Source: an uncultured bacterium (lineage in GTDB: Bacteria; Abyssobacteria; SURF-5). Taken from it: a DNA stretch of 64,000 bases. Location: positions 1 through 64,000 of the forward strand of contig CAZSKP010000025.1 of assembly GCA_964607485.1 (NCBI GenBank), written 5' to 3'. A program made the position numbers and the translations under genes. Under the pieces are notes generated by a model. That model worked only from the letters and a program-made list of their open reading frames with translations. It was not told where the DNA came from and ran no database searches. This document shows positions 2,418 to 40,139 of the stretch, piece after piece; the stretch's first letter is position 1; each line of letters opens with the position of its first letter.

Positions 2418-2473
2418 CCTTATTTATCCCTTCGTTTCGGGCATTAATTCGCGATATCGCGTTTTACCGATAT

Positions 2474-2502
2474 ATTGTACCAGCCCCTAAAGAGTTTGTC
2501 AA
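2474..2502 (-). promoter_or_regulatory. sigma70-type promoter for the Mo-oxidoreductase
   Basis: TTGACA-N17-TACAAT on the minus strand. Confidence 0.7.
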
Positions 2503-2547
2503 GTGCCTTTTTTCTTTCACATCTATATGCGGGCAAGAAAATCTCCA

Positions 2548-8502: not shown

Positions 8503-9288
8503 TCAGTGGGAGATGCCCTTGATGGTTTCCCACTCCTGCAACACGGCGCCGTGGGCCTTTTCCCTCTCGGCTTCGGTGGATTCTAACTCCTCCCTCGTGG
8601 GAGCAAGTGGAATGACCGGCTCCTCTATGGGCTTGGCCGGCACGAGCTCTTTCTTCACTTTCAGGGGGAGCCTCGCGACGTAGCCTTCTTTCCCTTCCGG
8701 ATACATCGCCGCCCCGAGCGCCTGCACCATGTCTTTCACCACGATTTCGGACAGAACTCCCAGCGAATTCACTCTCCCTATCCCAAAGACGATTTCCTTA
8801 TAGTCGCCCTGAAGCGAATGGGTCGCCGACCACACAATCTCACCACTGTTCGCGTCGACGAGCCTCAGGGTTATCGAGACTGCGGGCAACAAGCCCAGGT
8901 CGGTCGTGATGGTGGCGTATTCGTTCACGCTCCCAAAGATGATGCCGTCGGCGGTGAGCTCCCGCGAGGCTGCGCGTATGGTGTCGAGATCGAGCTGCGC
9001 CGCGACCCGAATCCGCGAACGGATTATGAACTGTTGAATCTCGCCCGGCTCGACCAGGTTCACAAGGTTCGAATTGTACAACTCCGAAACCAGAATACTC
9101 GTCACCCGGCTTCCGGCCTCGGGCGCACCGCTGAGGTTCTCCAGCGGAAACACCGCTATGCGGTTGAACCGTGTCACCTCGGGCGCGGGCCGCACGCTGA
9201 ACTGTGTGCGTCCGCAGGAGGCGAACACAAGAATGAGTCCAACAGCCACGAAACGCTCTAACGTGCTTTTCTTCGTCATCATTGTCAT
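8503..9288 (-). CDS. Lipoprotein, CsgG/DUF799 (GNA1162)-like
   Basis: Lipobox FASC, 'RIAVFPLENLS', 'ADGIIFGSVNEY', 'ITLRLVDANSGEIVWSA'; ATGA overlap with the upstream gene. Confidence 0.75.
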   Translation of the reverse strand: MTMMTKKSTLERFVAVGLILVFASCGRTQFSVRPAPEVTRFNRIAVFPLENLSGAPEAGSRVTSILVSELYNSNLVNLVEPGEIQQFIIRSRIRVAAQLDLDTIRAASRELTADGIIFGSVNEYATITTDLGLLPAVSITLRLVDANSGEIVWSATHSLQGDYKEIVFGIGRVNSLGVLSEIVVKDMVQALGAAMYPEGKEGYVARLPLKVKKELVPAKPIEEPVIPLAPTREELESTEAEREKAHGAVLQEWETIKGISH

Positions 9289-9860
9289 CTCACCATGTCT
9301 ATCAGTTTGCGACATACCCTTCGAGTGAGAACCGAAAAAAGCTGCTCCTCGCCCACGTCGACCACCGGCACCCTCGGGCTCCCCTCCTCCGACGCGGTAC
9401 CCATGAAGATGATGGTTCCCGTGTTCACGTCCACCCAGCGGACGTTGACCGCCACAACCGGATAGCTTTCGTTCCGAAACCGCTCCCTACCGTACTCCTG
9501 AACGCTGCCGAAGATGAGCGTGTCGGCCCGAAGCGCATTGCCGACCGATTTGATCTGGCTCTGGCTCAGCTTGCTTCCGACGATGCTGTTGTCTCTCAGA
9601 ACGCGCGCCACCTCTCCCGGCTCGACGACTTCGACGTCTATATCCATCAGGAGCTCTGAGATGTAGATCGTCGTCACCTTTTCACCCGCAAACTGGGTAA
9701 CGGTAAGGTTCTCAAACGGAATGACCGCCACGCGCGCGATTGCGCTCAAATCGGCCTCGGGATGCCTGAACGCCTGCACTCCCGTCGCGCATCCCGCAAA
9801 CAGCAACGCCGACACAAGCAGCCAGCTCAGAAAACGCACTCTAAGGATGTTAGATTTCAT
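9285..9860 (-). CDS. Lipoprotein, CsgG/DUF799-like (paralog of the downstream gene)
   Basis: Lipobox FAGC, 'RVAVIPFENLT', 'ADTLIFGSVQEY', 'VNVRWVDVNTGTIIF'; GGAGG RBS before 9860. Confidence 0.75.
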   Translation of the reverse strand: MKSNILRVRFLSWLLVSALLFAGCATGVQAFRHPEADLSAIARVAVIPFENLTVTQFAGEKVTTIYISELLMDIDVEVVEPGEVARVLRDNSIVGSKLSQSQIKSVGNALRADTLIFGSVQEYGRERFRNESYPVVAVNVRWVDVNTGTIIFMGTASEEGSPRVPVVDVGEEQLFSVLTRRVCRKLIDMVR

Positions 9861-9981
9861 CCCCGCCTCCCGGGATCTGTCCCTGTCGCCACGCTCCAAT
9901 TGGTTCACAGCCATCTTCGTCACTCTCCATCTTCAAGCCAAAGTTTCACAGCACAATAAAGAAACGTTCATGGTGCTGCTC

Positions 9982-12486
9982 TCAGAAAATCTTCGTCAGC
10001 TCGACGAACAGGAAATTGCTGTCGGACTGTTGCCCTTCCTCGATCTCCCAATTGATCGACATTCTGGTGTCCCAAAAGAAAGGAAACTTCGCCTGAGTCC
10101 TGAAGCTGAATACTTTCTCCTCATCGGAGCCGCCCCGGTATCCGACGAAGAAAGTCAGTTTGTCGTTCATCTTCCAGACGAGGTTCGATAAATAGCTCAG
10201 CCTATCCGTGGTCATGCCGTCGGACTTGCTCTCTACGTAATCCATATCCAGAAATAAGTCGAGCCGACGGCTGATGGCCCACGCGAGATCCATGCTCCCG
10301 AAGATCGTCTCCGAGCTCACATCGTCCAGCCCGGCGAACTTGCTGTCGCTCTTATTATATTCGGCAGTCGTGTTCAATGTCATGTTGGGCCTCGGCACAA
10401 GCCTCAGCCGACCCCGAACTCGTTGGCTGTCCACCGTGCCGTCGGCCTCGAAATCCTTGGACTGGCTGCTCGAAAGCTGCACATTGAGGTCGACGCCCCG
10501 ATATATTTTCATGTCGGTCGTGGCCGAGAACGTGTCCGTTTCCAGCACCTTCTCGTTTTCCTGCTCATTCTGCTGGTTCGAGTAGCTGAGGTCCACTCTG
10601 ACCCTGTCGGTGGGGAGCAGGTTCAGGCTCAGGTTTGTAAACGTGCTGTCCTCGTCGGGGCCGATATTGGTGTTCAGGTTGGCCAGCTGGTACGTCGCCG
10701 ACATGTTTACCCGAGGTATCGGCTGGAGAGAAAGCGTGTGGGTCTGGATGAATTCGTCACGCTTCGACTTCACATCTCCCGCCTCGGTTTCGAAAAGCTC
10801 AAGGTCGAACAGCGATGTAAACGATACCCAGCGATAGGGCTGGAGTCTGACCTGGGTGGTCAATTCGTGGGTAAGAGACGAGACCAGCTCCTCTCCCGTG
10901 TCCTTGTCCTCCTCCTTCGATTTGAAAAACTCGTAGTCCACAGAGGCATAGACTCCCTGAACCAGCTCGCGGGAATAGATGATGTTGAACGAATCCGACA
11001 TCAGATGCGTGCTCCGGCCCCGCTCCTCGCCGCTTATGGAGCCGACCTGGAAGATGAACATGCCGGCGCTCGTGAGCACCTGAAACCTGTCGTTTCCCGT
11101 GTCGGCAACAACGACGTCGTCGGCCGGCGTCAGGGCTATTCCACTGGGGGCATTGAACTCGCCGGGGCCGGTTCCCGAGGCGCCAAATTCATTCAGGAAC
11201 GCCCCCGCCGTGGTGAACACCTGTACCCTGTTGTTTCCCGTATCCGTCACGTACACCCGATTGACGGAATCGAGCGCGACATCCGTGGGAGATTGAAACT
11301 GGCCGGGGCTGGAGCCGAACGAGCCCCACTGAGTCACGAATGCGCCAGCCGTCGTGAACACCTGCACGCGGTGGTTCTGGGTGTCGGCCACGAACACGAG
11401 GCTGCCGTTCGACGCGATTCCCGACGGCGCGGAGAAGTTGCCCGGACCGGAACCGGTGGTGCCGAACGAAAACAAGAAGGCTCCGGCGTCGGTGAACTTC
11501 TGCACGCGGTCGTTCCCCTGGTCTGTCACGTACACGCCCGTGCCGTCAACCGCGACGCCATAGGGAGCGTCGAATTCACCCGCGCCGAGGCCGAACGTGC
11601 CCCATTCGGAGACGAACGTGCCCGTCTGGTCGAACCTCTGCACGCGGTCGTTGTCCGAATCGACCACGTACACAAAACTCGGAGTCACGTCTATCCCCAA
11701 CGGATTCCTGAACTGGCCCTCGCCGCTTCCGAAGCTGCCGAATTCTCCCAGAAACGCTCCCGAAGAGCTGAACCTGAAGACACGGTTCGCCGTTGAATCC
11801 GTCGCGTAAATGACCCCCGCGGAATCCACGGCGACGCCCCTGACATTCTGCAGGGTCGTGGTGGTGAGCGTGGAGAGGTTGTTATCGAATTCCGTTTCCC
11901 GATGCGAATACCTTACGGACAGCGGCCCATTATCGTACGTCGAGCGTATTCCCCAGTTGGTCTCGACGAAATCGGTCTGCGGCTCCTCCGCATCGTCTTC
12001 GGTTGAGATCCTTGAGAAATCCACCGTAAGGTCGGGATAGTCAGGGTCGGGCTCATAGTAGAAATTCGAGAAGAGAGTGTTGGACGTCAGGGTAAGGCCG
12101 CCTTCCTCGAGGTCTTTCTGTTTGAACTCTCGATATTCCACCAGCCATCGGTATTCCGGCCCCCTCAGGTTGAATCCGGCCAGCGGCCTGAGTTCCTCGG
12201 AGTCGGGGTTGTTTTGCTCCTCTCGGGAGAACTGAAAATAGAGGTCCAACAAATCCACGTTGCTCAGGGCCGTGCTCCAATTCAGGCGAAACCTCTGTTC
12301 AAAAGAGGAGAAGACCTCGCCGTCTTCTTCCTGTCTAAGGTAGTTCACGGTCGCCGATCCGCTCATTTCGCCGGCCCGCACGCTCACCGACCACAACAAC
12401 AATGCGCCGGTTACGAGCAAGAGCCGGCCTGCTCCTATGCATGAGGAAGACAGTTTACGCGGTTGCACATTCGATTTCTGGTTCAC
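9982..12486 (-). CDS. Outer-membrane beta-barrel with an inserted six-bladed NHL propeller
   Basis: Signal peptide, alternating amphipathic beta strands on both sides of six NHL repeats, C-terminal Phe ('FVELTKIF'). Confidence 0.8.
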   Translation of the reverse strand: MNQKSNVQPRKLSSSCIGAGRLLLVTGALLLWSVSVRAGEMSGSATVNYLRQEEDGEVFSSFEQRFRLNWSTALSNVDLLDLYFQFSREEQNNPDSEELRPLAGFNLRGPEYRWLVEYREFKQKDLEEGGLTLTSNTLFSNFYYEPDPDYPDLTVDFSRISTEDDAEEPQTDFVETNWGIRSTYDNGPLSVRYSHRETEFDNNLSTLTTTTLQNVRGVAVDSAGVIYATDSTANRVFRFSSSGAFLGEFGSFGSGEGQFRNPLGIDVTPSFVYVVDSDNDRVQRFDQTGTFVSEWGTFGLGAGEFDAPYGVAVDGTGVYVTDQGNDRVQKFTDAGAFLFSFGTTGSGPGNFSAPSGIASNGSLVFVADTQNHRVQVFTTAGAFVTQWGSFGSSPGQFQSPTDVALDSVNRVYVTDTGNNRVQVFTTAGAFLNEFGASGTGPGEFNAPSGIALTPADDVVVADTGNDRFQVLTSAGMFIFQVGSISGEERGRSTHLMSDSFNIIYSRELVQGVYASVDYEFFKSKEEDKDTGEELVSSLTHELTTQVRLQPYRWVSFTSLFDLELFETEAGDVKSKRDEFIQTHTLSLQPIPRVNMSATYQLANLNTNIGPDEDSTFTNLSLNLLPTDRVRVDLSYSNQQNEQENEKVLETDTFSATTDMKIYRGVDLNVQLSSSQSKDFEADGTVDSQRVRGRLRLVPRPNMTLNTTAEYNKSDSKFAGLDDVSSETIFGSMDLAWAISRRLDLFLDMDYVESKSDGMTTDRLSYLSNLVWKMNDKLTFFVGYRGGSDEEKVFSFRTQAKFPFFWDTRMSINWEIEEGQQSDSNFLFVELTKIF

Positions 12487-12527: not shown

Positions 12528-14012
12528 CTAATTATGACAAGCCACGTTGCAGTCGCCTTCATCCCAATCTCCGCTCGGCCCCCAGTTCGGGATATCGCTC
12601 TCCAACAACAATACCGTGCCGCCCCGGAGCCTGGCCGGGTCGCTCGTGGTCACGAGCAACGCCCGCCGGTTGATTCCATGCGGAATCTTGTCATGGCAGT
12701 CCATACACCCGATTGGCCGGTTCGCGACGACATTGTCCTGCTGAGAGTGAAATCCATGCAGGTTTCTAGTCCCGCCGTCCGAGGAAAAACCCGTGTTGCG
12801 ATTATCGTTTGCCTGCGCGTAGGTCGAAAAATCGTGGCACAGGAAGCAGAGGTGTCCGCTCGTGTCCTGCGTGGGCTGACCGGTTGTCACATCCCACGTA
12901 GCCTTCAACAGAAACTGAAGTTGGGAACCGTGGGGGCCTTCGGGGTCGCGCTCGACGTCGCTGCCGTGACAGTCGGAGCAGTACATCTGAGAGTCCCATC
13001 TCCAGCCGTTCACGAATTCGCCCCGGCCGTCGAGGTTGGGCGTCTGGATGACGTTGTGCGAACTCTCGTTGTTGGGGTTGAACTCGATCGACTGGTCCGT
13101 CTCCTGGCCTCCTCCCAGAGGCAACAGAGGCGGAAACGATCCATAGGCCCAGTATGAATGACACTTGAAACAAAGCTGATATTCGAATTGAATGTCGAAG
13201 GTCTGGTCCTTCGGCTCAAACGTCGGGAACGTGTCGGGCATGCCTCCATAGTTGGCCACGACGAAACTCGAGCCCATAAGCACGCCCGATGCCTGGTTTG
13301 TGCCCTGAACGTGAAGGTCCCCGGTGTGTACGTGCACGTTGTGGCAATCGACGCACTCGACATGTCGGCCCTGACCGGAAAAATTCGAGGAAATCATCTC
13401 TTCTCCCGCCCTGTGACGCCCGGCCATCTGGCGGTTGTCTATCTGGTGGGTAAATTGGTAAGTCAACTGCGTCTGGATGTCCTTCTGAGCGGGACCGGCC
13501 ACCCTGTGGCATCCCAGACACAAGTCTTCCTCCCGCCTGAACAAAAGCGAAGGCATCAGCCCCTCCGCGTCGCCCCAGCCGTGCGGCGTGTGACAGTTGA
13601 CGCACTTCCCCTTGGCTTCCGGCTCCATCCGGGCCGGAGGCTCCGGGCCAGGCCATCGCACCAGAAAGTCATTCTTGTGAATGGAGCGCTCGTACACGGA
13701 CGAGTCGCGATATGTCTCCTTCGGGCTTTCACCCGAGTGGCAGGTGAAGCACAACTGGTTGGTATCCTCCATCCAGAGCGCAAAATCGGTGGCGGCGCCG
13801 GGCGTTCCGTGCATCGAATGGCAATGCTCGCAGTCGCCCGGCGGAAGCGACGGGTCGCGCTTCACCCCTGTCGTCGGGTCTCCATGCAGCGTAGATGTGT
13901 ACAGTCCACCGCGCGCCCATCCGACGGATGCAACGCGCAAGGTAAGAATCGAGAGCGCGGCCAGCGCTGCGGCGACCATTACGATTTTCTTGACTGTCTG
14001 TCTCTTAGTCAT
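12528..14012 (-). CDS. Multiheme cytochrome c (9 CXXCH plus terminal CX3CH)
   Basis: CEHCH, CFTCH, CVNCH, CLGCH, CVDCH, CFKCH, CSDCH, CFLCH, CMDCH, CNVACH; signal peptide. Confidence 0.9.
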   Translation of the reverse strand: MTKRQTVKKIVMVAAALAALSILTLRVASVGWARGGLYTSTLHGDPTTGVKRDPSLPPGDCEHCHSMHGTPGAATDFALWMEDTNQLCFTCHSGESPKETYRDSSVYERSIHKNDFLVRWPGPEPPARMEPEAKGKCVNCHTPHGWGDAEGLMPSLLFRREEDLCLGCHRVAGPAQKDIQTQLTYQFTHQIDNRQMAGRHRAGEEMISSNFSGQGRHVECVDCHNVHVHTGDLHVQGTNQASGVLMGSSFVVANYGGMPDTFPTFEPKDQTFDIQFEYQLCFKCHSYWAYGSFPPLLPLGGGQETDQSIEFNPNNESSHNVIQTPNLDGRGEFVNGWRWDSQMYCSDCHGSDVERDPEGPHGSQLQFLLKATWDVTTGQPTQDTSGHLCFLCHDFSTYAQANDNRNTGFSSDGGTRNLHGFHSQQDNVVANRPIGCMDCHDKIPHGINRRALLVTTSDPARLRGGTVLLLESDIPNWGPSGDWDEGDCNVACHN

Positions 14013-14021
14013 TACGGAAGC

Positions 14022-15107
14022 TCACTCGTTGTGACACTGTTGACAGGGCGCATACGCGTCGGCGACGTTTCCGGGTGTTTTGAAAGGCCACGTCGCGCCG
14101 GCGCCATAGGGACCTCCGTGGGCGAAATGGCAGCTTTCGCAGAAGACCTCATTGCTTGCGGAAACCGCCCTGGCGGTCTCGAGGCTCGTCGCCGAAGGGT
14201 TCTGAAAGCGAACCCTCGGCATACCCGGCGTCGCGTCGCCCGTCGCCAGCCCAAAGCCGGCCCCCTCGCCGCCCAGCCAGTGCTGGAGGTCGACATGCGA
14301 GCCGCCGATTCCCATGCTGACATCCGCCGGATGCGCCTGGAAATGAGCGGGAAGCGTTCCCGCCTGCGTGGGGAGCAGCCCGTCGTGACATTCGGCGCAC
14401 CACTCTGACATCCTCGAACGATAGGCCACGTTGGAAATCCTGTATGCCTCCGCCGGATTGGTCCCGTCGGGATGGACCTCCTCGAACACGTCGTCGGTCG
14501 GAAGCTCCGGGTCGTGGTGGGCCAAGGGCGTGCCCGCTCCGGCGCCCGGACGGCTCTTGAGGTTCCTGTAGTACTGATTTCCGTGAGGGTCGTGGCAGCT
14601 CGTGCACTTGAGCACCGCAGGCGCCATTTCGCTGAAGGGAACCTCTGCGGGGAACACTCCGAGGTCGTGGCCCTTTTCGCTCTCGCTGCCTCCACTGTAC
14701 TCGAAGTATCCACCGGCGGAGAATTCGTCGGGCCCATAGGGTGTCGAAACAGGCGCCAACACGTCGGCCGCATCGACATCGGAGCCGTCGTGACAACTCA
14801 GGCACAGCTTGGTCGGAGACGAGAAGAGGAGAAGCTTCTCGAACGGGCCCCCCGGCTCCGCCCCGACGGGAGGCCTGCCATGCTGGCTGAAGTGGGCCGT
14901 GTGGCACTTCGAGCACACCTGTCCCTCGATGTGAAACTCGCCTGCAAGGGTCGTGCCCGCGGAGGCCGAGAACAGAAGCGCGAACAGCAGCGCCAGCTTC
15001 CCGAACCTTCCGAGAAGGCGATTACCTCTGCAACATCTTGAAGGCCTGAAGCCTCGAGGCCCCTTTTTCGAGAACATAGAGAGTCCTCTCGCCGAAGGCA
15101 ATATCAA
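14022..15107 (-). CDS. OmcS/OmcT-like hexaheme cytochrome c (second copy)
   Basis: Mature start 'FHIEGQVCSKCHTAH', six CXXCH, 'CTSCHDPHGNQYYRNL', 'MSEWCAECH'. True start uncertain because the ORF overlaps the upstream NHL gene. Confidence 0.8.
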   Translation of the reverse strand: MILPSARGLSMFSKKGPRGFRPSRCCRGNRLLGRFGKLALLFALLFSASAGTTLAGEFHIEGQVCSKCHTAHFSQHGRPPVGAEPGGPFEKLLLFSSPTKLCLSCHDGSDVDAADVLAPVSTPYGPDEFSAGGYFEYSGGSESEKGHDLGVFPAEVPFSEMAPAVLKCTSCHDPHGNQYYRNLKSRPGAGAGTPLAHHDPELPTDDVFEEVHPDGTNPAEAYRISNVAYRSRMSEWCAECHDGLLPTQAGTLPAHFQAHPADVSMGIGGSHVDLQHWLGGEGAGFGLATGDATPGMPRVRFQNPSATSLETARAVSASNEVFCESCHFAHGGPYGAGATWPFKTPGNVADAYAPCQQCHNE

Positions 15108-15945
15108 TCGGGTAGAAAAGCTCGCCGTCGCCCATTCCCGTCCTGCCCCATCGAAAAAGAAAGTTTCCGTCGAGGCTGAAGACTTTCAGGTCCTGCTTGA
15201 AGCTATCGACTATCCAAAGGTTCCCGTCGGGCCCAATCGCCGCCCCGGTGGGAAAAGAAAACTCCGAATCCTTTGGGCCGTGCCTTCCAAAACTTCTCAG
15301 ATGAGAACCGTCGCGGTCGAATACATTGACGGCCAGCCCCTCGGAGCTCAGGATGTACACGTTTCCCTCTGCATCCACCGTCACGTCCTGAACCTTCCAT
15401 TTCGGCGTCCCGTCAGCGGGCGTCTGTGCTATTCGCCGCACTGCATTGTCCGGCCTGGAAACGATGAAGACCGTGGGAGTCGCTCTGTCCGCGACGTATA
15501 TCTGGCCGGCGGGCCCGGAGCAGATTCGCCCCGGCGACGGAGGCGTGTCGCCCAAGGGCTCAAGCAGTATCGGTGGAAAGCGATTCCCAAGAATATCCAG
15601 CCGCATGACCTGCGGCCTGTCCATTTCCGTGAAGTATATTTCCTCATCCTCGCCGGCGGCGACGCCGACCGGGCTTCGGATACCGGCGAGCCGGCCGATA
15701 CTCTTTATGAGCACGCCATCCCTGTTGAAGACACGAATCTGATGATTGCCCGTGTCTGCGACCAGAATGTCTCCCGACGACTTGGAGATATCCAGCCCGA
15801 GCGGGTCGCGCAGGCTGGTTCCGTCGGCCAGACGGGAGACCGAGAAAACAAACCTGAGATTTCCATCGAGAGAATAGGAAGGAGAGTTGTAGAACAACAA
15901 CAGAGAGGTTATGAGCAGGCCGCCTATTTGAACGCGTTTGTTCAT
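15022..15945 (-). CDS. Exported NHL-repeat beta-propeller protein
   Basis: Signal peptide; repeats 'DPLGLDI..DILVADTGNHQIRVF', 'FSFPTGAAI', 'LFYPIDIA'; GAGG RBS. Confidence 0.88.
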   Translation of the reverse strand: MNKRVQIGGLLITSLLLFYNSPSYSLDGNLRFVFSVSRLADGTSLRDPLGLDISKSSGDILVADTGNHQIRVFNRDGVLIKSIGRLAGIRSPVGVAAGEDEEIYFTEMDRPQVMRLDILGNRFPPILLEPLGDTPPSPGRICSGPAGQIYVADRATPTVFIVSRPDNAVRRIAQTPADGTPKWKVQDVTVDAEGNVYILSSEGLAVNVFDRDGSHLRSFGRHGPKDSEFSFPTGAAIGPDGNLWIVDSFKQDLKVFSLDGNFLFRWGRTGMGDGELFYPIDIAFGERTLYVLEKGASRLQAFKMLQR

Positions 15946-16085
15946 ACCTCTCGGACACCGTGTCGGCCGATGGAATCCGGCAATGTCAACTCAAATTGTA
16001 CCAACTATATTAGCAATGTTTTCGGTCAAAAGCAATCGAAAACGAGCATTCTGAAGGTGCCAGATTCTTGCATCAGCGTCAAGCG

Positions 16086-16130
16086 AAAAAATCGAAGGAG
16101 GCGCTCCCTCGTTCAGGAAGCGCCTCCTCC
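16086..16130 (-). terminator. Intrinsic terminator downstream of the OmcS-like gene
   Basis: GGAGGAGGCGCTTCC-N7-GGGAGCGCCTCCTTC followed by GATTTTTT on the minus strand. Confidence 0.65.
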
Positions 16131-16253: not shown

Positions 16254-17351
16254 TTACGGCACGACCGGCGCTGCTACCACGATCTCGTCGCCGGCGTCCT
16301 GTGCGTGACACTTGTTGCACAGACTCCTCTGGTTCAACATATCCAGCGGAGCGCCGTCATAAGTGCTGATGTACGGCTCCGTTGCAGGATCCGGATGACC
16401 CTCTTCGAGCAATGTCGCTGCGAAATCCCAACGGCCCGCGTCCGGATAAGGAGACGCATGGGCACGGTGACAGGTCAGGCACATGACTTTGCTGGCCGCC
16501 GTCGGACCTGTCGTGCTGGTGGTCGTGTTCGCAGCATCCTCGAACGGAACGAGCGGCAGGTAGGCCGTTCCCTGAGAACCGCCGGTCATATCGCTTGTGG
16601 TCACATACGCGTTGTAGTTACCCGCGAGCGTGGAACCGAGGCTCTCATCCGTCGGGTGCACGAGGTTGGCACTCATGCCGGAATGCATATCCGTGTGGCA
16701 GTTCGCGCACCAGTCGCTCATGCCACTGATGTAAGCGGTGTGGTTACCGATATACTCCTCGCCGGAATCTCCCGGGTTGGTTTTCCGCGAATTCCCTATG
16801 GCTATCGGCGCAGCCTCGGTGAAGCTGTAGCCGGCGGCCGGATAGTTCGCGGCCGTCTCACCTGCACCGTACAGCATCCGGAAATTCGTGTTGCCGTGCG
16901 GGTCATGGCACGAGTTACAGCCCAGGTACGTGGAATCGTACGTTCCGCCCGGCGCTTCGGTGAGCACGTCGTCCTCGACCAAGCCATGGCCGGGAGCATC
17001 AAGGTTGTGGCCGTGTTCACGACCCTGAACGGTAACGTCGCCGTGATGCCCTGCCCACGTGATGTCCTGAGTCAGCCAGTAGAAGTCGCCGCCGGGACCG
17101 CGTCCCAGGCCGGTGGCGAGCTGGCCGTAATCAGCGTGACAGCTCAGGCAGGTGTCGCTGGGTGTTGCGTCGACCAGCAGGTAAGCGTTGCCGGTCGGCG
17201 AGTCTGCGTCTACCGGCGCGCCGTCCTGGCTGTTGTGCATGGTATGGCATCCGCTGCAGCGAGCCACACCAGCATCGTGGAACGCCATGGCCGCCGTGGA
17301 GTAACCCGCCACAAACAGAAGGGCTACTACTAGTACAATCGCCTTTTTCAT
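16254..17351 (-). CDS. omcS: OmcS-like hexaheme cytochrome c (candidate nanowire subunit)
   Basis: Signal MKKAIV..AAMA, then 'FHDAGVARCSGCHTMHNS'; 'PGGDFYWL', 'GHNL', 'CNSCHDPHG', 'MSDWCANCH', 'VMCLTCHRAHAS', 'QRSLCNKCHAQD'; six CXXCH; GGAGG RBS. Symbol is by family resemblance, orthology not tested. Confidence 0.85.
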   Translation of the reverse strand: MKKAIVLVVALLFVAGYSTAAMAFHDAGVARCSGCHTMHNSQDGAPVDADSPTGNAYLLVDATPSDTCLSCHADYGQLATGLGRGPGGDFYWLTQDITWAGHHGDVTVQGREHGHNLDAPGHGLVEDDVLTEAPGGTYDSTYLGCNSCHDPHGNTNFRMLYGAGETAANYPAAGYSFTEAAPIAIGNSRKTNPGDSGEEYIGNHTAYISGMSDWCANCHTDMHSGMSANLVHPTDESLGSTLAGNYNAYVTTSDMTGGSQGTAYLPLVPFEDAANTTTSTTGPTAASKVMCLTCHRAHASPYPDAGRWDFAATLLEEGHPDPATEPYISTYDGAPLDMLNQRSLCNKCHAQDAGDEIVVAAPVVP

Positions 17352-17410
17352 CAGTTCACCTCCTTCCATTTTCGAATGTTTCAGGTTTCCTCTTTGTGCC
17401 CCAGAAGCTC

Positions 17411-18478
17411 TCATTCAAATTCCTCCTTTACCTTGAGAACCTGTACCTTGTTTCCGAATCGTTGTGAAACATAAATCCTTCCGTACCTGTCAATCTCTAG
17501 ACTGCTCGGGTAGAAAAACCAGCCGGGGCGTGAGCCCATACCGCCGAATTCGGTCAGGTAGCGGCCTTCCCCGTCATAGACCGATATGCAATGCCTCAGC
17601 TTATCGAGCACGAAAAGGTGGCCGTGTCTGTCGATGGCGACATCCACCGGAAACGCCAGCTTGCCCGGCCCACCGCCCTGGATGCCGAAGCCCATGACCT
17701 GCTCCCCCTCGGTGTTGAACACGTAAACTCTCCCGAGGGTGCTGACGGGCAGGTACAGCCTGTCTTCCTTATCCACGGTCAAGTTGCCGAATACGACTTC
17801 TTTCCGATCTTTCTCGTCCATCTCGGGCATGATTTTGAAACGAAACTGCCCCTCGCTGTCGAAGACGAGGATGCAGCCGGTTGTCGGATTGGACAGGTAG
17901 ATGTTGTCCTGGGAATCCATAGCCATTCCCACCGGGGCGCAAGTCTCGCCGTCGGGCAAACCCTTCAGCTCCAGCTGTGACAACCCTTTCCCCCGATAAT
18001 CGAAGATGTCTATCTGTCTGCCCCCAAAATTGTTTTCGAGCACGTATATGTCGCCCCGGCTGTTCACCACAACGTCGAGCGGATTTCTCAGGATGCCGTT
18101 GTGGCCGAACTGGAATATCTGCATTCCCTCTTTGCCAAAGATGCGAACGCAGCGGTTTCCCGTGTCCGCAATGTAGACCTCATTATTCCCGTTGTCGCAA
18201 AACACGCCGTTCTGCCGTTGAAAATGCGAATCCTTCGTCGTGCCCTGCAGGTCATAAAGATACGTAGCCTGGATGTTCAGCCCTGCATATGCAGGTATGG
18301 CTATCAGTGAAAAGATGAGAAAACCGAGGGCTGATGCAACGACGGGTGTTTTCACGAAACGGGGGCAGTACGCCTCCTCTTGGGCTGCCGAATCAGGGGC
18401 AACATCTTGAGTAGCAGTCTTTCTCAAGTGCGATATCATGTTTCTGACTGAAATCTTCACGGTCAACATTTCCTTCAC
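17411..18478 (-). CDS. Exported NHL-repeat beta-propeller protein
   Basis: Hydrophobic signal ending 'PAYA'; NHL repeats 'EVYIADTGNRCVRIF', 'LAFPVDVAID', 'FFYPSSLEID'. Start uncertain. Confidence 0.88.
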   Translation of the reverse strand: MKEMLTVKISVRNMISHLRKTATQDVAPDSAAQEEAYCPRFVKTPVVASALGFLIFSLIAIPAYAGLNIQATYLYDLQGTTKDSHFQRQNGVFCDNGNNEVYIADTGNRCVRIFGKEGMQIFQFGHNGILRNPLDVVVNSRGDIYVLENNFGGRQIDIFDYRGKGLSQLELKGLPDGETCAPVGMAMDSQDNIYLSNPTTGCILVFDSEGQFRFKIMPEMDEKDRKEVVFGNLTVDKEDRLYLPVSTLGRVYVFNTEGEQVMGFGIQGGGPGKLAFPVDVAIDRHGHLFVLDKLRHCISVYDGEGRYLTEFGGMGSRPGWFFYPSSLEIDRYGRIYVSQRFGNKVQVLKVKEEFE

Positions 18479-18868: not shown

Positions 18869-20125
18869 TCAGGTCGACTTGTGACACTGGATGCATAGTT
18901 CGCGGTCACGGGGATAGTAGGTCAGATAGTCCTCATTCGAGGAGTGCGGGTCGTGGCAGCTCACGCAGTCGAGCCTCGAGCCGTCGCGCGGGTCGATGAC
19001 CCCCTCGCCGAAGGGATGGCTGATGGTATGCTGCCCGGCATGGCACCGCTTGCAGAGCTCCATGACATCGGCCTTCAAGAGGGAGGCCATGTTTGAACCA
19101 TGAGGCTCGTGACAGAGTTCGCACTGCCCCTTCAAGACCGGTTCGTGCACGACCTTGAGCTCGAGCTTCTGCGTGAAATCCGAGTGGCACTCCGCACAGA
19201 GCAGGCGTTTGTTTTCCTTCATCAGGAACCGCTCGTCGGAGGCATGCGGGGAGTGGCAGGCGGTACAATTGCCCTCGATGACGGGCGGGTGTGTGACCGG
19301 CCTTGCGAATTCCTTCCACGTGTCGGCATGGCAGGAACGACACAGGCTTTCTTCGGCCTTGACCAGCTTGAACGGATTCGAGCTGTCAGCCGGCAGGTGA
19401 CAGAACGAACAGAGCTTCTTCGTCATGGGCACGTGCGCGACCTTCCTGGTGAGTCCTTGCTGAGAAGAGGCGTGCGGGTCGTGGCAGTCCGCACAACCGA
19501 CGTTCTGCACGGGATAGTTGGCGTGCGCTTTTCTGAAGGCCAGCTTGGAGCTGTCGTGGCACTGGGTGCATAGCTCAAAGGGCTGCTTCTTCAACAGGTT
19601 CTCCTGGGACGAGGTGTGCGGTGAATGACATCTCAAGCACTCGGCCCGTTCGACGGGAGGATGCACATACTGCTTGGCGAACTGCTCTTTTTCCTCCTGA
19701 TGGCAAACATAGCAGAGCTCCTTCTGAGGCGAATTGAGCAATCGCGCTTGTGTCGAGGCGTGAGGCTGATGGCAGCTCAGGCACTGGCCCTCTTCCACCG
19801 GTTTGTGCGCGTACTCAGAACCGAATTCGGGCGAGCTCTTATCGTGGCAATCGTAGCAGTATCTGCTCTTCGAGCTACGGACAAGGTTCGGGTGATTCGA
19901 GGCATGCGGGTTGTGGCACCCCACGCAGTTGCCCAGTTCCACGGGGGCGTGAACGTGCTTCCCCTGCCACGACTGCTTGAGCTCTTTGTGGCAGGTGTAG
20001 CAGAGCTTCTCGTAGCTCTTCTCGCGCACGATTTCCTTTCCCGCCCCGAAGACGTGCGTGTTCGCGCCGAACATCCCTACAAGGGCAAGCGCGAGAAGGA
20101 TGATGACTGTTCTTCCGCTCCTCAT
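18869..20125 (-). CDS. Multiheme cytochrome c, 16 CXXCH
   Basis: 16 CXXCH counted; signal peptide. Confidence 0.92.
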   Translation of the reverse strand: MRSGRTVIILLALALVGMFGANTHVFGAGKEIVREKSYEKLCYTCHKELKQSWQGKHVHAPVELGNCVGCHNPHASNHPNLVRSSKSRYCYDCHDKSSPEFGSEYAHKPVEEGQCLSCHQPHASTQARLLNSPQKELCYVCHQEEKEQFAKQYVHPPVERAECLRCHSPHTSSQENLLKKQPFELCTQCHDSSKLAFRKAHANYPVQNVGCADCHDPHASSQQGLTRKVAHVPMTKKLCSFCHLPADSSNPFKLVKAEESLCRSCHADTWKEFARPVTHPPVIEGNCTACHSPHASDERFLMKENKRLLCAECHSDFTQKLELKVVHEPVLKGQCELCHEPHGSNMASLLKADVMELCKRCHAGQHTISHPFGEGVIDPRDGSRLDCVSCHDPHSSNEDYLTYYPRDRELCIQCHKST

Positions 20126-20195: not shown

Positions 20196-22169
20196 TCAAT
20201 GACAAAGTTCGCAGCGAAATTCTCCGTACGGTTCGTGGACAATGGCCGGCTCCAGCCCCTTTTGCTGGGACGCATGCGGGTCGTGGCATCCGGCGCAGTT
20301 CGCCTTGGTGACGTCGTAGCCTTTGTGCGCAGTAAGAAATTCTGGGGCCCCGGTATCGTGGCACGTCGCGCAGAGCTCGCTGGGTTTTTCGGGCAGCAAC
20401 GCGCTGAACTTGCTCAGGTGCGGCTCATGACACACCAGGCAATCGCCGTCGCCGACAGGCCCATGAACCACGGCCTTGCTGAACGCCTGTTTCTGAGTCG
20501 TATGGCAGTCGTAACAAAGCGGGGAGCCCGATTTCTTGAGAATCGGCGCCTGGGATGAAGCATGCGCCTCGTGGCATCCGAGGCAGTTTCTCTCTTTCAC
20601 GGGCTCGTGCACGTAACCGCCCGCGGCTTCCTCGGCATAATCGGCGTGGCAGTCGTAGCAAAGCTCGGTCAACGTAGTTTCAAGTAGTCCTTCGTTGGGG
20701 CTCGCATGCGACGGATGACAGGAAGAACACACGCCCTCGGCGACCGGCTCATGCACGCTGCTTACCTTCAGCGACTTTTCGAATTGCTCGTGACAGGTGA
20801 AGCAGAGCTTCGGCTCGACGGCCGTCAGGTAATTGGCATTGTCGCTGGAATGCGGGTCGTGGCATTGGACACACTGCCCCGCGACGAAGGGATCGTGTCC
20901 GCTCTTGCTCCGTTGCTGCTCTTTGATATCCGTATGACATTCGGAGCAGAGTGCGAACGGTTTGTCCCTCAATAGGGAGGCGAGCTGCGAGGTGTGCGGG
21001 ACGTGACAATTCAGGCAGTCCCCTTCCTTAAACGGAGCGTGAAGCTTCGCCCGCTTGAATTTGGGTTCGTCCCTGTGACAGTCGAGACACAGCTTCTCGC
21101 GCGGCTCATGCGTCAGGTACGGATAATCGCTGGCGTGCGAGTCGTGACAGGCCGAGCAGTTTCCTTCCACGAAGGGCTGGTGAGCCGCGGGCGGCTTCTT
21201 CGTCGGGAAAAGCGCCTCGTTTTCATGACATTGCCGACAAACCGCCTCCTGCCGGTCATTCAGGAGAGCGGCATATCGCGAGGCGTGAGGCTGATGGCAG
21301 CTTTCACACGTTTTGTCAGCGAACGGCGGATGCACGTCTTGAAGCCCGAGCTTCTGCTCCTGGTCGGTGTGGCAGGTGAGGCAGAGGTCGCCCTCGGCCT
21401 GCGCAAGGCCGGGCTTCTCGCCTGGCGCCGGCGGAGTGTGGCAGGTCTGACAATCGGCCTCCGTCAACGGCGGATGAAGCGCGGTTTGAAACAGTCCTTT
21501 CGTCTCGGATGAATGCGGATTATGGCACGAGTCGCAGGCTCCCTGCGTGACATCGTAGTTCTGATGCTTCCGAACGAACGACGCATCGTTAAAATTGTGG
21601 CAGTCGGAACAGACGCTCGCCTCGGACTTTTTGAGCAGTGAAGCGTTGGGGCCGGCGTGCGGCACGTGGCATGTGAGGCACTCCCCCTCTTTCACTGGCG
21701 CGTGAACGACGGGCCTGGTGAATTCCTGCTTTTGGTTCTCGTGGCAAATGTAGCAGAGGTTGACTCCCTCCTGCCTCAGCAATCCCTTGTTTGGGCTGGA
21801 ATGCGGGTCGTGGCACTTCCAGCAAACCCCCTGCTCGTCTTTGAAATGAAGGACCGGCTGCTCGAACATATCTTTCTGGTCTTCGTGACACTGAAAACAG
21901 AGCGACGCGTCCTCCTGCTTCAGCAGCAGCACCTTCATCAGCCCGTGCCGTTTGTGACACTTCTCGCAGTCTTCGCTCTTGAACGGCGCGTGGACCACCC
22001 TGTCGGAGAGTCGCGGGCGCATGTCCTCGTGACATTCGAGACACGACCGGCCCATCCGCCTGCGGGCGGGCCGAGGGCCGGCGCAATACAGCACCGACAG
22101 CGCTAGCACACCAAGAAATGACAGGTAGACGATGCGGCGTAATTGTGAGGCTGATGCGGGTTTTGCCAA
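20196..22169 (-). CDS. Multiheme cytochrome c, 26 CXXCH (possible lipoprotein)
   Basis: 26 CXXCH counted; hydrophobic N-terminus ending 'VLYC'; TTG start. Confidence 0.92.
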   Translation of the reverse strand: MAKPASASQLRRIVYLSFLGVLALSVLYCAGPRPARRRMGRSCLECHEDMRPRLSDRVVHAPFKSEDCEKCHKRHGLMKVLLLKQEDASLCFQCHEDQKDMFEQPVLHFKDEQGVCWKCHDPHSSPNKGLLRQEGVNLCYICHENQKQEFTRPVVHAPVKEGECLTCHVPHAGPNASLLKKSEASVCSDCHNFNDASFVRKHQNYDVTQGACDSCHNPHSSETKGLFQTALHPPLTEADCQTCHTPPAPGEKPGLAQAEGDLCLTCHTDQEQKLGLQDVHPPFADKTCESCHQPHASRYAALLNDRQEAVCRQCHENEALFPTKKPPAAHQPFVEGNCSACHDSHASDYPYLTHEPREKLCLDCHRDEPKFKRAKLHAPFKEGDCLNCHVPHTSQLASLLRDKPFALCSECHTDIKEQQRSKSGHDPFVAGQCVQCHDPHSSDNANYLTAVEPKLCFTCHEQFEKSLKVSSVHEPVAEGVCSSCHPSHASPNEGLLETTLTELCYDCHADYAEEAAGGYVHEPVKERNCLGCHEAHASSQAPILKKSGSPLCYDCHTTQKQAFSKAVVHGPVGDGDCLVCHEPHLSKFSALLPEKPSELCATCHDTGAPEFLTAHKGYDVTKANCAGCHDPHASQQKGLEPAIVHEPYGEFRCELCH

Positions 22170-22196: not shown

Positions 22197-22625
22197 CTAG
22201 TCCATGTTCTTGTACGCGATGAACTGAAAATAGTAACCGGGCTGGTGGATCATGTGAGGGATGGGGTTCTGGTACAAAATCCACGTTTCATACATCAACT
22301 TCTCCTGGTACAAGACCGCCAACTGCAACGCCGGATTCAGCGGCTTGTCCGAGCGGGAGGAGACCTTCTTGGTCTTCATGTTAATCACAAAATCGGGAAT
22401 GAACCTCTCCACCTTCACTGAGTACTCAGTGTCCGCAATGAAAAACTCCTCGCCCACGCGCACCCAATGGTCTTCGTAAGCTTGCTCGTCCAAAATGTGG
22501 CGGACGCGGATGTCGTACGTCGGGCCGGTCGCCTTCGTCGTCTGGCACGCGACAATCGTAACCAGAATCGCCCACACAAACGCAGCGATTACTTTCGCTC
22601 GGATTCTGGTTCCTTGAAATTTCAT
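22197..22625 (-). CDS. Lipoprotein resembling the periplasmic domain of the neighbouring ResB
   Basis: Lipobox IVAC; 'VERFIPDFVINMKTKKVSSRSDKPLNPA'. Confidence 0.7.
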   Translation of the reverse strand: MKFQGTRIRAKVIAAFVWAILVTIVACQTTKATGPTYDIRVRHILDEQAYEDHWVRVGEEFFIADTEYSVKVERFIPDFVINMKTKKVSSRSDKPLNPALQLAVLYQEKLMYETWILYQNPIPHMIHQPGYYFQFIAYKNMD

Positions 22626-22813
22626 GTTGAAGTCAACGTTATAAAGCAAAAAGAGTTCTTGAAGGACTCGCAATTTTCATGCCACGAGCGCTCAAACAAT
22701 ATAACATTATACATGCTTTTCGGCAAAACGCAACTCCCGGCCACAGAGCCGCTCAACTTTTTCTTCACCACAGGGTACACGACACGCACAGCGATCAAAT
22801 TCCTGGAAACCTC

Positions 22814-22896
22814 ACGCCAAGACGCCAAGGCGCAAAGAACGCAAAGGAAGACGTCGTTCAAGACTCTGGACTCTGGACCTTGGACTTTGGACTCAG
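22814..22896. repeat. Two short tandem-repeat tracts
   Basis: About 4x (A/G)CGC(C/A)AAG at 22814-22846 and 5x GAC(T/C)nnG heptamer at 22862-22896. Confidence 0.7.
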
Positions 22897-23699
22897 GCGT
22901 AGGCGTGGAGGCCGGCGAGCCAGTAGTTGACGCCGAGGTAGGTGAACACGACGCAGCAGAATCCCACGACAGCCATGATCGCCGAGGCTCTGCCGCGCAT
23001 GCCGCCGAATCGCATATGCAGGCAGCCCGCGTAGATAAACCACGTGATGAACGACCAGCTTTCCTTCGGGTCCCAGCTCCAGTAGCTTCCCCAGCACGTG
23101 TTCGCCCACACGGCTCCCGTGACGACGCCCAGCGTGAGCAGCGGGAACCCGAACGCGATCGCCCGGTAGGTGAACCAGTCGAGAAAGTCGGCGGTCTCGC
23201 CGATGCGAACCCGAACCGGAAGTCTCAGCAGGCGGACTATTCCCATGTCGAGAAACAGGTAAGCCGCCGCAGAAACGAACGCAAGCCCGAACGAGGCGTA
23301 CCCGAGGAAAGAAGCGAGAACGTGGAACAGCAGCCAGTTGCTCCTGAGCGATGGCAGGAGCGGCTCGATCTCGGACGACATCAGCGAACACGCCGACAGA
23401 ACGACGGCGGCGGCGAGGCTCGCGAACCCGCCCAGCGCCGGCAGCCCGTACCGCTTGTGCGCAACGATGGAGGCGGCCATCAGGAGCAGCGAAAAGAGGA
23501 CCAGCGTCTCGTACGTGTTCGTCACGGGCATCCTGTGTGCGACGATGCCGCGATGGACGATGTAGGCGAGGTGAATAACGATGCCCGAGAGCCCCAGTGC
23601 CCCGGCGAGCTTCGATTGCCACGGCCGCCTCGACAGAGCCGCCAGAAAGAAAAAGATGCTGGCGGCGAAATAGATCAGTTGCACCACTCCGAGCCACAC
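22893..23699 (-). CDS. ccsA: Cytochrome c biogenesis system II heme channel (CcsA/ResC)
   Basis: WWD motif 'GAVWANTCWGSYWSWDPKE', conserved His residues, C-terminal 'GLHAYA'. Confidence 0.95.
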   Translation of the reverse strand: MWLGVVQLIYFAASIFFFLAALSRRPWQSKLAGALGLSGIVIHLAYIVHRGIVAHRMPVTNTYETLVLFSLLLMAASIVAHKRYGLPALGGFASLAAAVVLSACSLMSSEIEPLLPSLRSNWLLFHVLASFLGYASFGLAFVSAAAYLFLDMGIVRLLRLPVRVRIGETADFLDWFTYRAIAFGFPLLTLGVVTGAVWANTCWGSYWSWDPKESWSFITWFIYAGCLHMRFGGMRGRASAIMAVVGFCCVVFTYLGVNYWLAGLHAYA

Positions 23700-23706: not shown

Positions 23707-25065
23707 TCACTCCCCTATCGCTTTGCGCAGTTGCGCGAGCAGTCCGTTCCACTCATACACAAAGTCGGGTCTATTCTTCACGCTGTAACTCAAAACTCTT
23801 ATGCGCCCGCTTTCGCCCGACTCTCCGCCGTCGAACTCAACCCGGACGAACCGCCGGAACATGTAGCAAGAAACGAGCGCGCCGCCCACGAGGAGCACAA
23901 ACCCGAAATAAGCGAACGCGGCGCCGGGGTCTTTCACTATCTTGATGCCGGAATAATATTTCAGACTCACTCGCTCGATAGCGAGCGTGAGCGGGCCGGA
24001 CGAGGAGTCGTGCCGCGGCACAATTCCCTTGAAGGCCCATCCGGTCCACACAGGCTGCTCGCTCCGGGCCGGAGAATACACGGACACCTTCGCTGCCGGG
24101 TTCAGGAAGAACCGGCTGCGCGAAAACACATTGTTCTTCGAGTCGATGGCGAAATCGGGAACGATCTCTTTCAGCTCGACCGCCATGTCCCGGCCGGCTA
24201 TGTCGGCGCGTTTGCCGGGCACAAGCCTTATGCTTGCGACAGGCGAGCGGGTTGCCGGTTTAAACGCGACGAGGCTCACATAGCGGACGTCGGGGCGATA
24301 ACGCATTTGATAAAGAGTCGCCCCTCCGACGGAGAGCGGCTGATTCACGCGCAGCATGTGCCAGCTTGGGGCGCCGTCGTTGCCTGTGACCATCAGGGTG
24401 CTGACATATTCCTCGGGCTCTCTCGTGCCCGGATGATGAACGATGGAGAATTTCTCGAGCCTGAGTTTCGTCTGAGTATCGGGAATCGTGTACGTCTCTC
24501 CCTCGCCCAGCATGATTTCGCGGACGGTTCCGAAATTGTGGGTGACGAGCCCGCCGACAAATGCGACGACCAGCCCGAGATGCACAACCAGCGGCCCCAG
24601 CACTCCGGCGCGTCCCTTGTCGAACAGGACGGCCTCGTCGGCCGGTTCGGCAGAGGCTGCGCGCGCGTGGTATCCCCTGTCGCGCAGAATTCGCGTTACT
24701 TTCTTGCGGACCGTTTCTCTTGAAGCCTCGGAAATAGGAATGGAGTGCGTCGCCACTCCGTCCTCGCGGGACCACGCCGCTTTGTCGGGGATGAAAGCGA
24801 AGGCCCTGATTACCGAGGGCAGCCTCCTGAGCGAGCAGTAGATCATCAACGAAGCGAGGAAGACGAGAAGCGATGTGTACCACCACGTGTGATAGAGGTT
24901 CTCCGCGCCGATAGCCCGGAGCAGCCCGGATAAAACTCTCCCGACGGTTCCGGTCTCAAGAAGCTTGACCGGAATCGTGCCGAGAACGGAAGCGAGCCCA
25001 ACGGCGCAAATGAGGGCGATGGTCAGCGCCGGCGAGCGCAGTTTCTGGTCGATCGTCCGCCACAC
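23707..25065 (-). CDS. resB: Cytochrome c biogenesis system II protein (ResB/CcsB)
   Basis: 'SVLGT', 'YHTWWY', 'CSLRR', 'VHLG', 'VNQPL..G..LYQ', 'KDPG'; adjacent to ccsA. Confidence 0.9.
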   Translation of the reverse strand: MWRTIDQKLRSPALTIALICAVGLASVLGTIPVKLLETGTVGRVLSGLLRAIGAENLYHTWWYTSLLVFLASLMIYCSLRRLPSVIRAFAFIPDKAAWSREDGVATHSIPISEASRETVRKKVTRILRDRGYHARAASAEPADEAVLFDKGRAGVLGPLVVHLGLVVAFVGGLVTHNFGTVREIMLGEGETYTIPDTQTKLRLEKFSIVHHPGTREPEEYVSTLMVTGNDGAPSWHMLRVNQPLSVGGATLYQMRYRPDVRYVSLVAFKPATRSPVASIRLVPGKRADIAGRDMAVELKEIVPDFAIDSKNNVFSRSRFFLNPAAKVSVYSPARSEQPVWTGWAFKGIVPRHDSSSGPLTLAIERVSLKYYSGIKIVKDPGAAFAYFGFVLLVGGALVSCYMFRRFVRVEFDGGESGESGRIRVLSYSVKNRPDFVYEWNGLLAQLRKAIGE

Positions 25066-27181: not shown

Positions 27182-27248
27182 ATTCAAAACCCCCTGATTG
27201 TGCGCTGTGACCATTGTTTGTTGGCAACCTTCGGATTCGTTCCGCCGT

Positions 27249-38588: not shown

Positions 38589-38603
38589 ATATTGTCCTTC
38601 ACT

Positions 38604-38677
38604 TTCTACCCTTGCGCTGACCGAGCGAGGGTTGATCGCCAGCGAAACAACAGTCAGCGTCCAGCAAATTGTTTGAC
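38604..38677 (-). mobile_element. Degenerate integron attC-like site
   Basis: GTCAAAC-AATTT-GCTGGACG...GGTCAGC-GCAAG-GGTAGAA between two co-oriented low-GC ORFs. Confidence 0.5.
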
Positions 38678-38693
38678 GTGCGCTTTCCAATGC

Positions 38694-39173: not shown

Positions 39174-39227
39174 GCATCCCTCCCAAATCGTACTTACTGC
39201 CTATTCATCACTTGCTCCCGCTAAACG

Positions 39228-39828: not shown

Positions 39829-40139
39829 TTCACCTCTTCTCAACTTAAAGCCGGAAGGCGCGGCCCCTTACCTTCACTGAAAATACCACACCCACCATGT
39901 AAAGTCAATTGTTCCAGCGGTCTTATGAGATTTTCGCGGAGTCGAGAAGACGCTGAGATATGCCTGAGCATTTATCTTTCTGGACATTGTGGCGTTCACT
40001 CCTCAGGTGTCGGGTCTTTGAATTGAATTCATCAATCGCGGGGATATCTCAGCGTTCTACAGAGGGTCAGTATGTTAAGCTGTAATATCTTAATTATGAG
40101 TATATTATGACTAATGATTTTGGCTCCATCTCTCTCCTC

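Follow-up and report, generated by a model that had tools for sequence, protein, structure and literature searches.

Does a small hexaheme cytochrome of an uncultured bacterium build extracellular wires as OmcS does, or does it work as a single molecule? The question is raised by a gene at positions 16254-17351, on the minus strand of a 64,000-nucleotide stretch of contig CAZSKP010000025.1 (GTDB lineage Abyssobacteria, SURF-5); "the window" refers to this whole stretch. The original prediction described the gene product as a compact OmcS homolog and the likely major subunit of a filament. The reading favoured here, which we hold to be moderately probable, is that of a Sec-exported hexaheme cytochrome of the OmcS family that is exported by osc-like proteins and most likely polymerises outside the cell for electron transfer. 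That it would be the major filament subunit is something we infer.

Similarity to OmcS and conservation of the axial ligands

The gene is an intact open reading frame (ORF), with 365 codons ahead of its stop codon. A phmmer search of its product against all chains of the PDB retrieves OmcS (6ef8_A/6nef) at E 9.6e-49 with 170 bits, while the next PDB match has an E-value of 1.4. The alignment runs from end to end and places residues 24-352 on OmcS 1-407 in two adjoining stretches (OmcS 1-151 and 186-407). The description as a compact homolog is appropriate: the core has 329 residues versus 407 in OmcS, the biggest gap corresponding to OmcS 152-185 and the rest to several loops. An AlphaFold2 (AF2) model based on a 112-sequence alignment has a mean predicted local distance difference test score (pLDDT) of 71.1 and a predicted template modelling score (pTM) of 0.71, with low confidence at residues 23-31, 146-174 and the last five. 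When compared with the PDB by Foldseek, this model retrieves only 6ef8_A (E 3.1e-19, template modelling scores 0.67/0.61, 34% identity; next match E 1.1). As modelled, the protein has the fold of OmcS, a fold without counterpart among solved structures. We regard its membership of the OmcS family as practically certain.

The translation contains six CXXCH motifs (first residues 32, 68, 145, 215, 291 and 345), in agreement with the six hemes announced for the 365 amino acids (aa), and it carries both terminal motifs that had been quoted: FHDAGVARCSGCHTMHNS at the mature N-terminus (residues 24-41) and QRSLCNKCHAQD towards the C-terminus. The OmcS termini cited in the original prediction agree with the alignment to 6ef8_A, which starts with FHSGGVAECEGCHTMHNS and ends with QRALCNKCHAKD.

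The axial ligands were mapped on a family set that includes every OmcS-like ORF in 78 genome loci with a BLAST coverage of 0.88 or more and no fewer than six CXXCH motifs. The resulting 92 sequences, chosen without regard to their histidines and after removal of one overlapping frame artefact, were aligned together with the window protein and a divergent paralog encoded nearby. All 12 cysteines and the six motif histidines align in 92/92 members and in the window protein. Outside the motifs, exactly six histidines are near-universal in the family and the window protein has all of them: H25 (91/92, the single miss being a truncation at a contig edge), H39, which follows heme 1 (88/92), and H115, H152, H232 and H298 (92/92 each). 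In the numbering of the phmmer alignment they correspond to H2, H16, H110, H147, H257 and H335 of OmcS. Six universal distal histidines fit the ligation of OmcS, for which the available text of PMC6584659 and PMC12203936 gives 12 histidine axial ligands, 11 from the same chain and one, on heme 5, from the neighbouring subunit. Other histidines vary within the family (H113 in 55/92, H204 in 39/92, H223 in 51/92). H223, the last histidine of CHTDMH, was considered as a ligand and rejected because only these 51 members keep it. There is no seventh universal histidine, hence none available to replace H39. Alignment to OmcS with mapping of the axial histidines, the check proposed with the original prediction, thus returns a conserved pattern at 12/12 positions, H39 included; as read from the alignment, the axial-ligand set consists of the six motif histidines and the six family-wide ones.

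The H39 position is lost in four members, all from Geobacterales: L070_9815, L074_9965, L065_1826 and L053_906 (at L070:9815-11221, L074:9965-11197, L065:1826-3067 and L053:906-2261). From their sequences they are obvious candidates for relatives that do not polymerise or that assemble in another way.

A compact subfamily with C-terminal extensions

A word-indexed search identified 4610 proteins at E <=0.001 among 8000 candidates scored. An exhaustive search of representatives at 50% identity gave 993 clusters at E <=0.001, 407 at 1e-10 and 128 at 1e-30. The window protein does not stand out within its family, which is large, widespread and already noticed (about 1000 clusters at 50% identity). 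Its best named matches (66-76% identity) come from metagenome-assembled genomes (MAGs) of Candidatus Abyssubacteria/Abyssobacteria and from Lindowbacteria, followed by Poribacteria (61%) and by Krumholzibacteria and Eisenbacteria (52-55%). OmcS-encoding genes were already reported for Krumholzibacteria in 2021 (PMC7914226, in the portion available), and an Abyssubacteria MAG appears among the genomes credited with marker genes of iron reduction, OmcS being one of the set (PMC12501874, likewise in part).

In a quick IQ-TREE tree of 94 rows, a branch with 100% support in the Shimodaira-Hasegawa-like approximate likelihood ratio test (SH-aLRT) divides 34 rows (the window protein, its paralog and 32 sequences that we call compact) from 60 long ones. 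Mature proteins have a median of 335.5 residues in the compact group (n=30) versus 398 in the long group (n=57). Compact members come from Krumholzibacteriota, Acidobacteriota, Fibrobacterota, Gemmatimonadota, Ignavibacteriota and unclassified MAGs; they form a subfamily whose core measures about 330 residues and which is mostly found outside Desulfobacterota. Inside the long group, a subclade of 45 rows (100%) holds both OmcS-type genes (L065_8618, 537 bits to 6ef8, and L042_9493, 439 bits) and OscC-like genes such as L042_11360, which scores 406 bits to OmcS and whose product ends in CYKCHATLPQ. The window protein is separated from this OmcS/OscC clade by the 100% branch, so that orthology to OmcS is not supported; the tree places it as an outgroup to the OmcS/OscC duplication. 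Tandem copies also occur in the family: a Nitrospirota MAG carries five to six OmcS-like genes in a row, two of them nearly identical (L068:6703-16428).

The two groups also differ in their variable histidines. H204 is present in 32/32 compact versus 7/60 long sequences, and H223 in 27/32 compact versus 24/60 long members. H113 (codon 17013-17015) and H204 (codon 16740-16742) are invariant in 112 close homologs and absent from OmcS. These 112 sequences make up alignment A1, retained from 121 proteins after exclusion of the longer form of the window protein, three truncated matches, three whose N-terminus differs and two clipped at the N-terminus.

The original prediction drew attention to an extra C-terminal tail that could alter or cap assembly. 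The tail is indeed there, as AGDEIVVAAPVVP (residues 353-365), and it is modelled as disordered (mean pLDDT 61 at 351-360 and 41 for the last five residues). The cap interpretation is abandoned, since extensions are the rule in the compact clade: at least two residues follow the CHxKD motif in 31/32 compact versus 9/60 long sequences. The same is true of 98/112 sequences in A1, where the number of residues past CHxKD is at most 1 in 14 sequences, 2-8 in 71, 9-16 in 21 and more than 16 in 6. The commonest form is xGDAP[YF], and the closest relatives have tails of 10-14 residues that are acidic and proline-rich like that of the window protein. A sorting signal of the PEP-CTERM type was also considered and rejected because the tail has no transmembrane segment. 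The extension is probably a normal and flexible trait of the subfamily.

Gene organization and the osc-like neighbourhood

The features of the gene and of its surroundings are listed in Table 1. An alternative ATG at 17414, 21 codons upstream, would give a protein of 386 aa. It was discarded in favour of 17351 because GGAGG lies 7 nucleotides (nt) ahead of the latter and because this start leaves a signal peptide of the length seen in most relatives (about 23 residues, counted ahead of the conserved Phe-His). Cleavage is predicted before F24 (AMA / FH) from the -3/-1 rule, which leaves a mature protein of 342 aa. A23 occurs in 90% or more of the A1 sequences, and F24 and H25 are invariant there, partly by selection given the sequences left out of that alignment. 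In the unselected list, the N-terminal pattern is found in 114/120 of the matches listed, and three full-length exceptions still have CXXCH-x-x-H. About 125 nt 3' of the stop codon, a hairpin resembling an intrinsic terminator has a fold energy of -37.1 kcal/mol (z -5.27), equalled by 0/200 shuffles. Terminator-like sites in the scanned region are not more numerous than expected by chance (5 observed versus 4.4 expected), so the terminator argument rests on the strength of this one hairpin. Shine-Dalgarno sequence and terminator together suggest that the gene may be expressed above its downstream neighbours, as for a structural subunit made in excess.

Table 1. Features of the hexaheme cytochrome gene and its neighbourhood, all on the same strand, in order of transcription from position 28028 downwards
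Feature	Coordinates	Strand	Basis or remark
7-heme cytochrome, related to GSU2203 family	27249-28028	-	
MtrB/PioB-like porin	25169-27214	-	weak similarity to GSU2204 family
ResB (System II cytochrome c maturation)	23707-25065	-	
CcsB (System II cytochrome c maturation)	22893-23699	-	
158-aa ORF, unknown	22197-22673	-	
26-heme cytochrome, GSU2495-like slot	20196-22169	-	26 CXXCH, synteny
16-heme cytochrome, GSU2494-like slot	18869-20125	-	16 CXXCH, synteny
NHL beta-propeller directly upstream of the hexaheme gene, GSU2505/GSU2493-type slot	17411..18478	-	Pfam NHL E 1.1e-15
Shine-Dalgarno GGAGG	17359..17363	-	7 nt ahead of ATG 17351; read from sequence
Hexaheme c-type cytochrome precursor, OmcS family	16254..17351	-	stop codon 16254-16256; translation, phmmer, AF2/Foldseek
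Signal peptide, residues 1-23 (MKK, hydrophobic core, AMA)	17283..17351	-	predicted Sec type
Mature N-terminal motif FHDAGVARCSGCHTMHNS, residues 24-41	17229..17282	-	H25, heme-1 motif C32-H36, H39; aligned to OmcS 1-18
Heme-2 motif CLSCH, residues 68-72	17136..17150	-	kept in 92/92
Heme-3 motif CNSCH (145-149) then DPH	16896..16919	-	H152 conserved distal ligand, 92/92
Heme-4 motif CANCH (215-219) through LVHP	16656..16709	-	H232 conserved distal ligand, 92/92; H223 not universal
Heme-5 motif CLTCH (291-295) then RAH	16458..16481	-	H298 conserved distal ligand
C-terminal motif QRSLCNKCHAQD, residues 341-352, with heme-6 motif C345-H349	16296..16331	-	translation, OmcS alignment
C-terminal extension AGDEIVVAAPVVP, residues 353-365	16257..16295	-	acidic then Pro-rich
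Intrinsic-terminator-like hairpin	16084..16130	-	16 pairs + U-run; ~125 nt 3' of stop codon
Second NHL beta-propeller	15022..15945	-	Pfam NHL E 1.7e-22; 23.5% identical to upstream propeller
Divergent hexaheme paralog (PAR361)	14022..15107	-	OmcS E 6e-07, 32 bits
494-aa multiheme cytochrome	12528..14012	-	9 CXXCH + one CX3-4CH
OscE-like outer-membrane protein, 834 aa, NHL propeller inserted	9982..12486	-	slot profile E 1.9e-26; Pfam NHL mid-protein
CsgG/LpoB/GNA1162-like lipoproteins (OscF-, OscG-like slots)	9285-9923, 8503-9315	-	Pfam CsgG ~3e-06 each
20-heme cytochrome	6931-8460	-	20 CXXCH

In related loci, including those of the cultured Geomonas silvestris and G. limicola, the genes recur in a common order: an NHL propeller, at least one OmcS-like gene, a YNCE-type propeller of about 470 aa, a porin-like protein of about 750 aa, a lipoprotein of about 200 aa, a protein of about 390 aa, a SurA-like peptidyl-prolyl isomerase (PPIase), and cytochromes with 26 and with 13-16 hemes. 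This order fits the published osc block, GSU2500-2493, which lies behind oscC (GSU2501). For OmcS, OscH has been assigned to folding, OscE, OscF and OscG to secretion and OscD to morphology (PMC13194489 and PMC12977616, citing Shen 2025, in their available passages), and the available part of PMC12977616 gives GSU2495 as a 26-heme protein. From the Geomonas gene order we infer which slot corresponds to which Osc letter.

The window gene directly upstream of the cytochrome matches the profile of the NHL slot (40 loci) at E 3.1e-85. An OmcS-like gene stands directly behind the NHL gene in 37/44 loci, as it does in the window, and the order 26-heme, 16-heme, NHL, OmcS-like is also found in two other loci (L040 and L063). 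The two lipoprotein-slot profiles match window genes at E 3e-42 and 2.2e-31. The profile of the porin-like slot matches only residues 22-215 and 612-757 of the 834-aa protein, the NHL propeller lying between them. Another locus (L012) has an F5/8 type C domain in the OscE-like slot where the window has this propeller. Loci with at least 18 kb of sequence were then compared, the core being defined as the porin-like slot (S2) plus the slot of the 200-aa lipoprotein (S3). The core is present in 12/18 compact-clade versus 21/26 long-clade loci, the OscD-like slot in 3/18 versus 20/26, and the PPIase in 12/18 versus 20/26. Absence of OscD is normal for the compact clade, while absence of the PPIase is unusual.

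The neighbouring hexaheme paralog shares 30% identity with the window protein over 322 aa and scores 86.7 bits with the A1 profile. It keeps 12/12 ligand positions, including the histidine after heme 1, and sits on a very long branch (3.77) of the IQ-TREE tree. Its own family gave 311 matches, from Abyssubacteria, Zixibacteria, Nitrospiraceae, Anaeromyxobacter and others. Six hemes and CXXCHxxH are found in 120/120 of the matches listed, and the chain ends at most 3 residues past heme 6 in 116/120 of them. Contigs of length 78654, 29985 and 83885 figure in its match list as well as in that of the window protein, which suggests that the two genes co-occur in relatives.

Other features of the surroundings can be mentioned. 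The porin and 7-heme cytochrome at 25169-28028 look like a separate porin-cytochrome conduit, and the cytochromes at 6931-8460, 18869-20125 and 20196-22169 are very heme-dense (20, 16 and 26 CXXCH, respectively). GC content falls to 0.454 at 38001-40000, against about 0.57 elsewhere, and the ORFs there have no Pfam match. A molybdopterin oxidoreductase with a 4Fe-4S partner (249-3420, minus strand) and a glycyl-radical (PFL-like) enzyme (40905-43406, plus strand) are gene content that points to an anaerobe.

Possible wire subunit or non-polymerising carrier

According to the favoured reading, the precursor would be cleaved at AMA / FH and would receive its six hemes at the CXXCH motifs, probably by the ResB and CcsB proteins encoded 5.5 kb upstream. 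From the conservation described above, each heme would be bis-histidine, with its motif histidine and one of H25, H39, H115, H152, H232 and H298. The protein may then cross the outer membrane by way of the OscE-like protein and the two CsgG/LpoB-like lipoproteins, with the help of the NHL propellers, as homology and synteny suggest. Outside the cell, by analogy with OmcS, it would most likely polymerise head to tail, H39 completing heme 5 of the next subunit, and the hemes would stack without a break along the polymer, allowing extracellular electron transfer. Electrons could be delivered by the adjacent 26-, 16- and 20-heme cytochromes, by the porin-cytochrome module, or by both. Taken by itself, polymerisation of the protein is plausible, the balance being slightly in its favour. 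A dimer prediction with two copies of residues 24-365 and alignment A1, made without hemes and without controls, gave 0.00 in both runs, a value that speaks neither for binding nor against it.

Several observations weigh against this reading. The protein shares only 34% identity with OmcS, its core lacks 78 residues, those of OmcS 152-185 among them, and the confidence of the structural model is moderate. In the 94-row tree the protein does not group with the OmcS-type genes separately from the OscC-like paralogs. The role of H39 depends on its OmcS counterpart, H16, being the inter-subunit ligand, as reportedly described by Wang et al. 2019; no paper that names this histidine turned up in the literature searched. 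The terminal motifs, put forward in the original prediction as associated with polymerisation, prove to be non-discriminating: H39 is found in 88/92 members, among them the OscC-like L042_11360, and is also present in the window paralog. No ORF of at least 70 aa in the window matches the profile of the OscD-like propeller at E <=0.01. An OscH-like PPIase is likewise absent from the 64-kb window, with neither a profile match nor a Rotamase domain in the scanned ORFs, unlike the 12 core-bearing compact-clade loci, all of which have a PPIase; the gene may be located outside the 64 kb. Moreover, in 6/18 compact loci whose flanks are complete no osc gene lies in the vicinity, so that members of the family also occur outside such clusters. 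No filament is reported for any compact-clade member in the literature searched. Finally, among the four paralogs of Geobacter sulfurreducens, OmcS alone is known as a wire, and sequence methods cannot separate them, according to the available part of PMC12977616.

This last point is also a reason to consider that the protein is a hexaheme cytochrome which does not polymerise, a soluble or surface-bound carrier or a terminal reductase/oxidase like OmcT, OmcJ and OscC, working with the porin-cytochrome module and the large periplasmic cytochromes. The position outside the OmcS/OscC clade, the shorter core and the missing OscD- and OscH-like genes agree with such a function, and the MtrB/PioB-like porin and 7-heme cytochrome at 25169-28028 would supply a separate route for electrons. 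Against it stand the six universal distal histidines for six hemes, one of which is H39, the counterpart of the OmcS histidine following heme 1: in a monomer with a fold like that of OmcS, heme 5 would have no sixth ligand. Conservation of secretion-type osc genes beside the family and the invariant Phe-His of the mature N-terminus, which suggests that the free end matters structurally, also speak for a polymer. A non-polymerising protein is possible but on the improbable side.

The paralog at 14022-15107 could instead be the main or a co-polymerising wire subunit, leaving to the 16254-17351 product a minor, nucleating or connecting role. Its complete ligand set, the six hemes and CXXCHxxH throughout the listed members of its family, the short chain end, which resembles that of OmcS, the NHL propeller gene of its own upstream and the indication that both genes travel together are all compatible with this. 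But the paralog is much more distant from OmcS (E 6e-07; 32 versus 170 bits) and on the long branch noted above, its start overlaps the preceding gene, and it is the 16254-17351 gene that has the conserved place behind an NHL gene and is followed by the terminator. We consider such a division of roles very unlikely. On sequence grounds the 16254-17351 product appears the better filament candidate, because of its higher score to OmcS (170 versus 32 bits), its slot adjacent to the NHL gene (37/44 loci), and its Shine-Dalgarno sequence and terminator. A bolder proposal is that the compact hexaheme, as a minimal and self-sufficient subunit, forms nanowires with the help of fewer export proteins (neither an OscD propeller nor a PPIase, and an OscE-like protein that contains an NHL propeller) and that the paralog forms a distinct or mixed wire, giving two OmcS-type filaments outside Desulfobacterota; this we regard as doubtful.

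Returning to the favoured reading, the closest known system is that of OmcS itself (GSU2504; 6EF8/6NEF). Both proteins have six CXXCH motifs in the same order, six distal histidines and near-identical N- and C-terminal motifs, and both genes lie behind an NHL gene and close to osc-like genes. The window protein differs by its C-terminal extension of 13 residues and by its position outside the OmcS/OscC clade, and its polymerisation is a prediction. As in the osc block with OscC (compare the Geomonas loci L042 and L045), an OmcS-like hexaheme lies beside OscE/F/G-like slots, a 26-heme cytochrome and the cytochrome that follows it. However, set against what is available of the osc descriptions, the window is without an OscD-like YNCE-type propeller and an OscH-like PPIase, its cytochrome pair is upstream rather than downstream, and an NHL propeller is found inside its OscE-like protein. 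By gene content alone, the window also resembles the clusters DFE_0448-0451 and DFE_0461-0465 of Desulfovibrio ferrophilus IS5, which combine multiheme cytochromes, extracellular and periplasmic, with NHL beta-propeller proteins. Those clusters were proposed to serve extracellular electron exchange, there uptake (Deng et al. 2018, PMC5815863), and the accessible text describes them as outer-membrane cytochrome complexes rather than as an OmcS-type wire. CwcA of Thermincola, compared here by its description, is another hexaheme from outside Geobacter that has been modelled on OmcS. In its proposed stacking, a histidine of the next subunit fills the open distal position on heme 5, although the context is that of a Gram-positive cell wall (PMC12203936, in the part available).

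The locus is a test case for a problem stated in the available text of PMC12977616, that of telling wire-forming relatives of OmcS from the others by sequence. Six conserved distal histidines, including the one after heme 1, constitute a simple and testable rule, for which the four Geobacterales members devoid of H39 are natural negative controls. If the protein polymerises, it would offer a smaller scaffold (329 versus 407 core residues) for finding which parts of OmcS are needed in assembly, and wires of the OmcS type would extend to poorly known subsurface lineages.

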